Shown piece after piece: positions 41,611 to 44,129 of a stretch of 64,000 bases of DNA. Numbering within the stretch: position 1 is the stretch's first letter; every line of letters starts with the position of its first letter. The position numbers and the translations under genes are program-made. Source of the DNA: a virus; the IMG/VR virus record IMGVR_UViG_3300032401_000690, positions 32,001-96,000 of that record; one strand, given 5' to 3'. The notes beneath the pieces were generated by a model. The model worked only from the letters and a program-made list of their open reading frames with translations. It ran no database searches and was not told the origin of the DNA.

Positions 41611-41664
41611 AGTGTTGGTTTTTATTATAAATATCCAACTAAATAAAAACTATTTATTTATGGG

Positions 41665-41753
41665 TTAAATTATAGGTTTCCTCCGACTGTTATTTTTATA
41701 TCATACGAGACACAACTGGTGGGTGTCCCCCCAAATTATAGGTATCTTCCAAC
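41665..41753 (-). CRISPR. CRISPR-like mini-array 3 (degenerate): repeat 41718-41753, 30-bp spacer, truncated repeat ~41665-41687
   Basis: GTTGGAAGATACCTATAATTTGGGGGGACACCCACC plus half repeat GTCGGAGGAAACCTATAATTTAA. Confidence 0.55.
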
Positions 41754-42007
41754 CATATACTGAGTATATCCCTTGTTTGTGAGTCATCTAACCCAAAAAT
41801 GTTTTTAAAAAACGACCAAAGTCTTTCTCTATTTATAAACACAAACCCATTTTTAATATTATGACGATAGAAAAATAACGGTCTTAGGTCTCTATCAACA
41901 TAAAATGTTTTATCACCTTTAACCTCCGGAGTTAAATCACCAAACTCTTTGTGTAACCACTTAAACACCAATCTGTCCCTACTACTTTCAGTTATTATTA
42001 TTTTCAT
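41696..42007 (-). CDS. Array-associated small protein, paralog 3 (MKIIITES family)
   Basis: Paralog of 42286..42624; ends WLEDTYNLGGHPP, encoded by the repeat. Confidence 0.75.
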   Translation of the reverse strand: MKIIITESSRDRLVFKWLHKEFGDLTPEVKGDKTFYVDRDLRPLFFYRHNIKNGFVFINRERLWSFFKNIFGLDDSQTRDILSIWLEDTYNLGGHPPVVSRMI

Positions 42008-42015
42008 ATCATTTT

Positions 42016-42370
42016 AAATTATAGGTCTCTTCCAACCTTAGGTACGCTTGATTTGAATGGAAGAAACCATGTGTGAGTCCCCTCAAATTATAGGTCTCTT
42101 CCAACTTTTACTATTAATAAAAACATCCTATTCTGGGTGTGAGTCCCCTCAAATTATAGGTCTCCTCCAACTACGCCAAGCTTTGCAAAGGAGACCAAGT
42201 AGGTGTGAATCCCCTTAAATTATAGGTCTCCTCCAACTATAGAGAGAAAAGTAGAATAGCCCAAGTTGGTGTGAATCCCCTTAAATTATAGGTCTCCTCC
42301 AACGGAATTGGAAATGTAAAGGGTTGCCCAAGTTGGTGTGAATCCCCTTAAATTATAGGTCTCCTCCAAC
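42016..42370 (-). CRISPR. CRISPR-like mini-array 2: five 36-bp repeats plus truncated terminal repeat, five spacers
   Basis: Repeats at 42335-42370, 42268-42303, 42202-42237, 42136-42171, 42070-42105, half at 42016-42036; spacers 31, 30, 30, 30, 33 bp; consensus GTTGGARGAGACCTATAATTTRAGGGGAYTCACACC. Confidence 0.75.
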
Positions 42371-42624
42371 CATATAGTCAGAATCTCCTTTGTTTGCAAG
42401 TAACTCAGACCAAAAATAGAATCAAAAAATACCCAAATTCTGTCGTAATTTATATAAACATCCCTATTTTTTGAATCCTGGTAATACACAAATAACGGTT
42501 TTCGGTCCTCATCAACATAATATGTTTTATCATCTTTAACCACCGGAGTTAGATCACCAAACTCTTTGTGTAACCACTTAAACACCAATCTGTCCCTACT
42601 ACTTTCAGTTATTATTATTTTCAT
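42286..42624 (-). CDS. Array-associated small protein, paralog 2 (MKIIITES family)
   Basis: 112 aa; reads through repeat 1 (LEETYNLRGFTP) and spacer 1, stops inside repeat 2. Confidence 0.75.
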   Translation of the reverse strand: MKIIITESSRDRLVFKWLHKEFGDLTPVVKDDKTYYVDEDRKPLFVYYQDSKNRDVYINYDRIWVFFDSIFGLSYLQTKEILTIWLEETYNLRGFTPTWATLYISNSVGGDL

Positions 42625-42632
42625 ATCATTTT

Positions 42633-42786
42633 AAATTATAGGTCTCTTCCAACCAATTTACAGAAACTTGACGGTATATAATTGGGTGTGAGTCCCCTCA
42701 AATTATAGGTCTCTTCCAACGGGATTTGCATAATCACCTGCCCATGCACTGGTGTGAGTCCCCTCAAATTATAGGTCTCTTCCAAC
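42633..42786 (-). CRISPR. CRISPR-like mini-array 1 within the 3' end of the SOD-fusion gene
   Basis: Repeats 42751-42786 and 42685-42720, half repeat 42633-42653; spacers 30 and 31 bp. Confidence 0.7.
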
Positions 42787-44129
42787 CATACCTTCAGAAT
42801 CTCCTGTGTTTGCGGGCGTTTCAGACCAAAAATAGAATCAAAAAATACCCAAATTCTGTCGTAATCTACATAAATAAACCCATTTTTTTCATCCTGGTAA
42901 TACACAAATAACGGTTTTCTGTTCTCATCAACATAAAAGGTTTTATCACGTTTAACTACGGGTGTTAGATTTCCAAACTCTTTGTTTAACCACTTTAATG
43001 CGGATTTAAATTTAGGATCAACCGATTCGTTAATTGATTCTTTTTTACTTGTTCTCAAGTCATAAAGACTAGTAACGAATTCCCAATTAATATGGTTCCA
43101 AAATTTATTAATATATTGGTCTCGTTTATTTTTATATCTTAAATAATATGCGTGTTCCCAAAGATCTAATCCAAGGATTGGATATCCACCATTAACATCA
43201 TTCATTAATGGGTTATCTTGGTTTGGTGTTGTAATAATTTTTAATCTATTAGTTTTTGTTAAAACCAACCATACCCAACCTGAACCAAAACTATCCAAGG
43301 CGGCCTTATTAAATTCTTCTTTAAAATTTTTAAATGATTTGTATTGGTTTGTTATTTTATCTAAAAGATCCCCTTTTAAAGTTTGTTTTTTTGGGGTTAA
43401 CATTTTCCAAAACAATGCGTGATTAAATGCACCACCGGCATTATTTCTGACCTTTGTATTAAATTTAGTGATAGTTTTAATGATGTCCTCAAGTTCTATA
43501 TCACCTTTTCTACTTGATAATGCATCATTTAATTTTTTAACATAACCTTTATAATGTTTGTTATAATGAACATCCATTGTTTCAGGATCAACAAATTGTT
43601 TTAATGCCGAATATGAATAGGGTAATTTCTCAATACCAATTTTTTTCATTTCGGTAATGAATTCTTTTTGAATGTTAATTTTGTCTGTTAATACGATTTG
43701 TTCTGTTAAGATATCAATTCTATTTGAAATGGGTTTTAACCCCTCATAAACAATATTAACCATTTCGGGGTGTTCTTTTTCAAACATTTTAATTAATCGT
43801 CCAGCACCAGCATTTGCTTCATCCTCATTTTTTCCACCAATATCTTGACCAATTTCCCGTTTTAATATGGTCATTTGATGTTCGTGAATCCATTCGTGTG
43901 CAAGAGTTCTTAAGATATCTCGGTTCAACCGACCTTTAGTTAAAATTTTAATACCAAACTCATCACTTCTACTACCAGTCGTCATTTGACCTGTGCGATC
44001 ACCCAAGAAAGAAACTAATATATCATTCTTTAATGGATATTTTTCATTTAAAAACTTAATAAATTTTTTGGCAAGATCCTTACTTTCTTGGGACATTGAG
44101 CATTTAATATGTTTAATAGATACTTTCAT
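42636..44129 (-). CDS. sod: Fe/Mn superoxide dismutase fused to an N-terminal HExxH domain and a C-terminal array-associated domain
   Basis: HYNKHYKGYV, NNAGGAFNHALFW, FGSGWVWL, DLWEHAYY; N-term LAHEWIHEHQ...NEDEANA; C-term KWLNKEFG...WLEETYNL. Confidence 0.9.
   Translation of the reverse strand: MKVSIKHIKCSMSQESKDLAKKFIKFLNEKYPLKNDILVSFLGDRTGQMTTGSRSDEFGIKILTKGRLNRDILRTLAHEWIHEHQMTILKREIGQDIGGKNEDEANAGAGRLIKMFEKEHPEMVNIVYEGLKPISNRIDILTEQIVLTDKINIQKEFITEMKKIGIEKLPYSYSALKQFVDPETMDVHYNKHYKGYVKKLNDALSSRKGDIELEDIIKTITKFNTKVRNNAGGAFNHALFWKMLTPKKQTLKGDLLDKITNQYKSFKNFKEEFNKAALDSFGSGWVWLVLTKTNRLKIITTPNQDNPLMNDVNGGYPILGLDLWEHAYYLRYKNKRDQYINKFWNHINWEFVTSLYDLRTSKKESINESVDPKFKSALKWLNKEFGNLTPVVKRDKTFYVDENRKPLFVYYQDEKNGFIYVDYDRIWVFFDSIFGLKRPQTQEILKVWLEETYNLRGLTPVHGQVIMQIPLEETYNLRGLTPNYIPSSFCKLVGRDL

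Follow-up and report, generated by a model that had tools for sequence, protein, structure and literature searches.

A stretch of phage DNA in which three related genes follow each other, each of them with repeats behind it whose first copy belongs to the gene itself, raises the question of how an array that resembles a CRISPR array can begin inside a protein-coding sequence. Does such an array grow at the gene, as a CRISPR array would grow at its leader, or is it the product of recombination between neighbouring genes, and what is the end of the gene selected for besides the protein?

The window (the whole stretch of DNA that was analysed, 64,000 nucleotides) corresponds to bases 32001-96000 of a 144-kb IMG/VR phage contig, which is 49% complete according to CheckV and whose genes include those for a tail sheath, a family-B DNA polymerase and an SNF2 helicase. 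The contig codes, in addition, for proteins containing SprB repeats and T9SS-associated domains. SprB repeats, Por secretion tails and T9SS-associated domains are hallmarks of Bacteroidota surface proteins, and the presence of SprB/T9SS-type proteins points to a host among the Bacteroidota; the source of the contig is an uncultured giant phage of Bacteroidota. Outside the window (loci L122 and L123), there are large phage proteins with SprB repeats, a Por secretion tail and a T9SS-associated galactose-binding domain.

Gene ends that are also first repeats

The three modules lie in tandem on the minus strand, and a fourth module (L008) runs off the contig end. A fuzzy search with the 36-nt repeat, in which module 2 spans 42016-42370, gives matches on the minus strand only. 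The features are the following.

41652-44129, minus strand: three tandem modules, each consisting of a gene of one family followed by repeats
42636..44129, minus strand: superoxide dismutase (SOD) fused to the family domain (ORF list; Pfam Sod_Fe_N and Sod_Fe_C; fusion also in relatives)
42633..42786, minus strand: array of module 1 (fuzzy search for the 36-nt repeat and array anatomy)
42751-42786 and 42685-42720, minus strand: repeats of module 1, exact variant A
42721-42750 (30 nt) and 42654-42684 (31 nt), minus strand: spacers of module 1
42633-42653, minus strand: terminal repeat of module 1, truncated, 21 nt
42286..42624, minus strand: gene 2, 112 aa, family domain (ORF list; AlphaFold model; homologues)
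42335-42370, 42268-42303 and 42202-42237, minus strand: repeats 1-3 of module 2, variant B (three differences from the module-1 repeat)
42304-42334 (31 nt) and 42238-42267 (30 nt), minus strand: spacers 1 and 2 of module 2
42172-42201, minus strand: spacer 3 of module 2, which precedes repeat 4
42136-42171, minus strand: repeat 4 of module 2, hybrid (one difference from the module-1 repeat)
42106-42135, minus strand: spacer 4 of module 2
42070-42105, minus strand: repeat 5 of module 2, variant A except for a changed last base
42037-42069, minus strand: spacer 5 of module 2, 33 nt
42016-42036, minus strand: sixth copy of module 2, truncated to 21 nt, abutting the start of the next gene
41696..42007, minus strand: gene 3, 103 aa, family domain; its embedded repeat, at 41718-41753, is decayed (ORF list, repeat search)
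41652..41717, minus strand: module 3, one spacer (41688-41717) and a degenerate terminal repeat (41652-41687)

The last 12 codons of the domain of gene 2 (LEETYNLRGFTP) are repeat 1 of module 2, and the tail of the protein consists of spacer 1 followed by the start of repeat 2, which is read out of frame. The ORF of the SOD fusion stays open across the first two repeats and the first two spacers of module 1. The fusion between an Fe/Mn superoxide dismutase and the family domain is kept in several relatives (L015, L026 and L047), and in some loci the sequence is free of stops across array units and on into the next family domain. The single spacer after gene 3 is also present in L020 and L015.

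The repeat (that at 42268-42303, for example) has stop codons in both alternative frames, so that a spacer of 29, 31 or 32 nt brings the ORF to an end within the first few codons of the repeat that follows; these out-of-frame stops are the reason why many database homologues are exactly 112 residues long and end in VGGDL or VGRDL. As for the truncated terminal repeats (42016-42036 and 42633-42653), they read in frame ...YNLK-stop and overlap the ATG of the next paralogue. The terminal repeat puts stops within about 12 nt of this ATG in all three frames, so that translational coupling through the array to the next paralogue would be possible.

Related loci were gathered from IMG/VR (68, with the gene), from JGI metagenomes (27, with the repeat) and from a genome collection (1); they yielded 85 arrays and between 116 and 150 unique spacers, according to how these were detected. 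The repeat is the 3' end of the family domain, which has about 95 residues; it is always 36 nt long, and in arrays its first copy always consists of the last 12 codons of the domain. At least one further repeat, and hence an array, is found behind 77 of the 112 unique family genes (about 69%). Arrays reach seven spacers, with several short arrays per genome. The spacers measure 29-33 nt (mode 30, one of 35), only about 37% of them having 30 nt while 29, 31 and 32 are common; their GC content is about that of the phage, and they show no mutual similarity beyond shared descent (116 unique spacers). Degeneration beyond about nucleotide 21 is a constant feature of the most distal repeat. Direct repeats of constant length separated by unique spacers of similar length are what is expected of CRISPR arrays in general, and so is the polarity that is visible here in the degenerate distal repeat, in the extra proximal spacers of locus L018 and in an imprint of stop codons, the last two of which are described below.

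The small protein belongs to no family of Pfam or PHROGs, its fold has no significant Foldseek match in the PDB, and its matches in BFVD are only uncharacterised proteins of one uncultured phage. In the AlphaFold model of the gene 2 protein (pLDDT 82), the part encoded by the repeat forms the end of a helix and the last strand; the latter comprises residues 96-100 and runs three residues into the tail, across the boundary between repeat and spacer. A related protein, P0002, is identical to that of gene 2 up to residue 92, but its repeat end is decayed (KGFTE) and its tail unrelated. This allele probably lacks an array, and would then show that arrays are gained or lost between near-identical genes.

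The end at which the arrays grow

The preliminary description of this locus had reported that the three gene-proximal repeats of module 2 are of variant B, that the fourth is a hybrid and that the distal ones are of variant A, as in module 1; it took this order as a sign that new units are copied from the gene-embedded repeat, and expected relatives to have distal spacers in common and different proximal ones. The order itself is borne out by the fuzzy search. The two variants differ at positions 7, 22 and 29 of the repeat, and the hybrid repeat 4 is of B type at position 7 and of A type at positions 22 and 29. In the frame of gene 2 (ORF 42286..42624), two of the changes are synonymous (GAA/GAG, Glu, and TTG/TTA, Leu) and the third (CTC/TTC) exchanges Leu and Phe, in agreement with what had been stated. 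Each variable site switches only once along the array, which has a chance of about 0.02 (1/10 x 1/5) if identical copies are randomly placed. The array is not an artefact of the assembly of a single record, since the Logan-derived locus L092, an independent assembly, contains an identical one.

The B/hybrid/A order can be explained equally well by a single crossover and by a stepwise change of the embedded repeat from A to hybrid to B. Variant B fills the whole array of the orthologue of gene 2 in L077, and the local gradient of module 2 may result from a crossover between a B-type array such as this one and an A-type array. The stepwise path is also realistic, to judge from the sequences of the relatives, because the hybrid is the native first repeat of genes in L089. 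For module 2 taken by itself, the gradient does not tell polarised growth from recombination, as one B x A crossover would give the same order.

The family as a whole, on the contrary, favours growth beside the embedded repeat, and the strongest line of evidence comes from stop codons. Each spacer was read in the frame that continues from the preceding repeat, and compared with the other two frames: stops are found in the repeat frame of 31 of the 150 spacers, versus 71 and 70 in the other frames. The depletion is confined to codons 1-5 and is gone after codon 5. Over these five codons, the spacers that are reached by the ORF of their gene today have 2 stops versus 31 and 28 in the other frames, and the 64 spacers that are not translated have 3 versus 29 and 30 (binomial p about 1e-7). 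Of the trinucleotides read in phase in spacers, TGA and TAA show the strongest depletion. In 36 spacers from arrays with other repeat types the signal is seen again (4 stops versus 14 and 18), whereas a bona fide Cas13b array (30 spacers) has no such frame (6, 8 and 14 stops). All ten spacers of the phage genome are open over their first five codons, and tails shorter than five residues are found in only 2 of the 77 array genes. That the spacers are coding sequence captured in phase was considered and ruled out, as they have no codon-position composition. The simplest reading of the imprint is that every spacer was once located directly after the embedded repeat and translated, which requires entry at the gene-proximal position; its cause would be a filter on the length of the tail. 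Such an imprint is a way to infer the insertion end of an array using only its sequence.

Comparisons between arrays are in line with this reading. Arrays of four to eight repeats are usually uniform and match the variant of their own gene, even when three variants are present on one contig (L077), which is what copying from the embedded repeat would produce. Of the four spacers in the array of L018, only the distal one is common to the single-spacer arrays of L011, L095 and L099 (the shared spacer is 87% identical, the gene 88% and the downstream flank 98%); the three extra spacers are proximal to the shared one, as had been predicted from polarised gain. The last 110 nt of gene 2 and its repeat 1 are 100% identical to those of L077, yet none of five spacers is common to the two, so that spacer turnover must be far faster than point mutation. 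Taken with the stop-codon imprint and the degenerate distal repeat, these results favour proximal growth as a general rule in the family. The first repeat does not diverge significantly more often than the internal repeats (12/33 versus 8/35).

The stretch is present in sediment metagenomes, in which Logan contigs break into pieces of 70-160 nt at every repeat; loose ends that lead to different spacers come from co-occurring relatives (L021-like and L077-like), and none could be read as a variant array of the same strain. Another observation concerns the start of the spacers. Five spacers in three independent arrays (window 42172-42334, L014 and L047) begin with (A/T/G)ACTTGG, which reads Thr-Trp after the repeat, and the second position of the tail is enriched for Phe, Trp and other hydrophobic residues across all spacers. 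It may be that these preferences reflect selection on the first residues of the tail, or else a preference of integration.

Constraints on the embedded repeat and its likeness to the Cas13b repeat

The preliminary description had also proposed that the embedded repeat is constrained twice, as protein and as RNA. The 112 unique family domains were codon-aligned, and distant pairs (20-40% identity over the rest of the domain) were compared. Among array-bearing pairs, the amino-acid identity is 0.53 in the 12 repeat codons versus 0.27-0.34 in the rest of the domain, and the same-codon identity is 0.67-0.68 versus 0.57-0.61. Among array-less pairs of the same divergence, the corresponding values are 0.27-0.32 versus 0.25-0.34 for amino acids, and 0.54-0.59 versus 0.55-0.59 for codons. 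The repeat codons are thus conserved in excess in array-bearing pairs and not in array-less ones, an effect which could in part be one of ascertainment, since arrays can form only where the site is intact.

The residues W85, L86, Y90 and L92 are conserved in genes with and without arrays; this is a constraint on the protein, and it fits the AlphaFold model. On the contrary, the conservation of R93, G94 and T96 as residues is limited to array-bearing genes. The choice between synonymous codons also depends on the presence of an array: codon identity in array-bearing and array-less genes is 1.00 and 0.50 for TTG (Leu86), 1.00 and 0.47 for AGG (Arg93), 0.98 and 0.64 for ACA (Thr96), and 0.96 and 0.75 for AAT (Asn91). 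The nucleotides that are fixed in this manner, GTTG, AAT, AGGGG and ACA, are those common to the Cas13b repeat, and positions 7, 22, 28 and 29-31 vary freely. Since variation is limited to the free positions, the differences between A and B (7, 22 and 29) are located exactly where neither constraint holds. In the eight codons that precede the Trp, where a leader-like constraint was looked for, there is no clear excess of synonymous conservation.

As a reference for the Cas13b repeat, the canonical pattern was searched in 101 Flavobacteriaceae genomes; an array of 32 repeats in one of them (G034) adjoins genes called Csx27 and Cas13b by NCBIfam. The phage repeat and that of this csx27-cas13b locus are identical at 24 of 36 positions without gaps (z about 6 against shuffles), the phage repeat has the GTTG...TTTGgAGGG...CACAAC pattern of VI-B repeats, and its orientation to the upstream gene is the same as that of the bacterial repeat relative to cas13b. 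The structure is different. The repeat RNA of G034 folds with -11.2 kcal/mol (z -3.4), forming a closing stem and a 7-bp hairpin, whereas the phage repeats fold at about -2 to -6 kcal/mol (z -1.2 to +1.8), no better than shuffled sequences, and keep only about 3 of the 7 stem pairs. The VI-B hairpin is absent because the codons for Glu-Thr-Tyr take up the 5' side of its stem. In the bacterial array (L130 7880-8170), two repeats are "long" variants with an insertion of about 50 nt, and the last repeat, far from cas13b, is slightly degenerate. The only Rfam match, to the family CRISPR-DR8, is on the opposite strand and below threshold (22 bits versus a gathering score of 39, E 0.07), and was not used.

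The codon analysis therefore upholds the dual constraint at the level of the protein and at that of the nucleic acid, and the part of the earlier proposal which concerned RNA is not supported, the Cas13b-type hairpin being lost. We argue that, the hairpin being missing, the second constraint would most simply be that of a DNA sequence recognised at integration rather than that of an RNA.

In Flavobacterium columnare, the II-C and VI-B arrays have repeats of 36 bp and acquire new spacers of 28-32 bp (mode 30), and the VI-B array, which has no cas1 of its own, depends for adaptation on the II-C cas1 in trans (PMC8092290). The phage arrays are similar to these VI-B arrays in that they have a 36-nt repeat, spacers of about 30 nt (28-32 there, 29-33 here), polarised growth at the 5' GTTG side and no cas1/cas2 of their own. 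They are different in that they are carried by a phage without cas13b, their first repeat is coding, the gene body is in the position of the "leader", the repeats have no hairpin and there are several short arrays per phage genome. The spacer lengths of the phage are also less strict than those of the bacterial array of G034, whose 30 spacers all have 30 nt.

The mini-arrays described in viruses have repeats identical to those of the host, and spacers mostly directed against related viruses (PMC6858448; review PMC11656645). Like them, the phage arrays are viral, devoid of cas genes and presumed to depend on the machinery of the host; unlike them, they have neither a matching host array nor a target that we could find, they have up to seven spacers, and their first repeat is inside an ORF. 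RNA anti-CRISPRs (Racrs), which are non-coding and mimic the structure of the repeat (PMC10651486), have in common with the phage arrays, as do solitary repeat units, the mimicry of a CRISPR repeat by a virus, but the first repeats of the phage are coding and unstructured, and do not qualify as Racrs. The published finder of repeat mimics masks ORFs and requires at least 90% identity to known repeats (PMC10651486), so that it could not detect arrays embedded in genes.

Origin of the arrays and their possible role

We propose, with a probability of roughly 0.55, that these are CRISPR-type arrays which are seeded in the 3' end of a phage gene and grow at this gene end, the insertion being performed in trans by the Cas1-Cas2 of the host. 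The gene body would stand in the place of the leader, and the last 36 coding bases would be the first repeat. New spacers of 29-33 bp would enter directly after the embedded repeat, which would be duplicated each time; this is the part of the mechanism that is shown or strongly indicated by the arrays themselves. The new spacer would become the C-terminal tail of the protein, and would survive only if its first five codons or so are open, because the last strand of the domain runs into the tail. Older units would be pushed away from the gene and keep the imprint. The protein would fix W, L, Y, N and L, and the nucleic-acid role would fix GTTG, AAT, AGGGG and ACA through the choice of codons, a double constraint which would confine variation to the free positions listed above. 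The B/hybrid/A order would result from the stepwise change of the embedded repeat (A, hybrid, B) between insertions, and homologous recombination between repeats and inside genes would also delete, swap and stack units. That the Cas1-Cas2 of the host acts in trans, like that which serves the 36-bp II-C/VI-B arrays of Flavobacterium, is what we infer by analogy with F. columnare, since the phages have no cas genes.

A similar process has reportedly been observed in the bacterial chromosome: Nivala et al. are said to have described, in 2018, rare off-target ("neo-CRISPR") events in which Cas1-Cas2 integrates spacers into non-CRISPR sites, and the target is duplicated as a new repeat. The anatomy of the phage arrays is consistent with such an integration site, in both cases a non-CRISPR and perhaps coding sequence that becomes the repeat. 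What is different here is that the arrangement is conserved across a large gene family, that the site is conserved at the nucleotide level and that translation filters the spacers.

Searches for the partners of such arrays were negative. Neither Cas1 nor Cas13b was found in the 144-kb contig or in a complete array-carrying relative of 296 kb (G402), using a search that picks up the positive control G034, and no integrase was found for the arrays. No bacterial array with the repeat consensus was found among 185,579 species (exact pattern, one genome per species), and no host array in 401 Flavobacteriaceae genomes when three mismatches were allowed. The sole match in this search for a host is a phage-like contig of 1.8 kb (L106) binned with a Flavobacterium MAG, which is either a weak hint to the host or a binning artefact. 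This contig contains structural genes, a family gene and a three-repeat array, the spacers of which give only chance matches in the MAG. Five spacers scanned in IMG/VR gave no protospacer, nor did about 22 spacers blasted against the 50,697 phage genomes of INPHARED, databases in which this sediment virome is thinly covered. No spacer has a match outside the arrays in the 144 kb of the phage or in related loci, and the possibility that the spacers are self-derived is ruled out for the contig, since 0/10 of its spacers match its 144 kb. The search for a tracrRNA-like anti-repeat in the contig gave nothing beyond 12-14 nt.

Recombination between modules is demonstrably active, judging from the segments that they have in common. 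Between L088 and the array at the contig end, the segment from repeat 2 over spacer 2 to repeat 3 is 100% identical, with genes that are just 84% identical and a different repeat 1 and spacer 1; modules 1 and 2 are both followed by the same truncated 21-nt repeat and the same stretch, of about 80 nt, of the next gene; and the database proteins P0001, P0002 and P0004 are four-way mosaics, in which two N-halves are combined with two C-halves and their tails. It may therefore be asked whether unequal crossing-over and gene conversion between paralogous gene-plus-repeat modules, within one genome or of co-infecting phages, could have stacked, swapped and deleted the units without any integrase. 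In that case the hybrid repeat would be the point of crossover, and indeed it is B-like on the gene side and A-like distally, as a single crossover predicts, variant B being present throughout the array of L077; the stop-codon imprint would also be obtained by stacking units each of which was first in its donor gene. However, recombination gives no source for about 150 unrelated spacers that have a set length (29-33) and no 3-base periodicity, and it accounts neither for long arrays that are uniform for the variant of their own gene despite several variants on one contig, nor for the complete turnover of spacers between gene ends that are 100% identical. We consider it unlikely that recombination is the whole explanation. 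Another view, according to which the units chiefly encode a C-terminal tandem repeat or a store of cassettes (12 conserved plus 10 hypervariable residues) with no CRISPR-type biology, would account for units with a period of 66, or 22 codons, for ORFs that read through several units, for the listed spacers of L042 and L048:2995, all seven of which have 30 nt so that the units stay in frame, and for the avoidance of stops in the repeat frame. It is very improbable, since with about 37% of spacers of 30 nt the frame is lost in most units, stops occur in both alternative frames of the repeat and 64/150 spacers are not translated; the avoidance of stops ends after codon 5, there is no codon-position composition in spacers, and synonymous codons are fixed only in array-bearing genes.

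As to the function, the arrays could produce guide or decoy RNAs for a Cas13b-type effector of the host, in a conflict between viruses or as an RNA anti-CRISPR, in which case it is a role of the RNA that would constrain the repeat. The 24/36 identity to a real Cas13b repeat, the orientation in crRNA sense with the gene and the occurrence of several arrays per genome are compatible with this idea, for which viral mini-arrays and repeat mimics are established precedents (PMC6858448, PMC10651486, PMC11656645). We find it less likely still than recombination as the whole explanation: the Cas13b-type hairpin is not kept, no host array with the phage repeat was found, and no tested spacer has a target. 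Both the loss of the hairpin and the failure to find targets speak against a guide or decoy for Cas13b, and fit either a role at the DNA level or a tolerated by-product of host adaptation. Our order of preference for the role of the arrays is a by-product or sink of host adaptation, then a crRNA decoy or interviral guide, and last the diversification of the tail. A more specific possibility, to which we give rather little credence, is that the phage keeps look-alike leader-repeat junctions, placed where the copies of a multicopy gene end, as integration sinks that blunt the immunisation of the host, or that it exploits host adaptation to rewrite the tail of its protein. As a sink, the junctions would, in the course of infection, lead the Cas1-Cas2 of the host to load new spacers into the many copies of the phage genome instead of the host array, and the arrays would be the scars.

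Viral arrays without cas genes are already known, but we found none described in which the first repeat is the end of a protein-coding gene. The papers on viral mini-arrays, repeat mimics and CRISPR elements of mobile elements describe non-coding elements, with repeats identical to those of the host (PMC6858448, PMC10651486, PMC11656645). Finders of repeat mimics which mask ORFs (PMC10651486) are blind to arrays embedded in genes, and yet these are common among the genes that we collected (77/112). In the phage, the first repeat being the end of the gene, each incoming spacer is first read as protein. If it is really the Cas1-Cas2 of the host that inserts the spacers, then phage DNA is a regular target of adaptation, the body of a gene could be a leader, and the birth of an array from a non-CRISPR sequence could be observed in nature. 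Whether as a sink or as a means to rewrite the tail, if either is true, a coding sequence would function as a CRISPR integration site, in which translation filters the spacers that survive.
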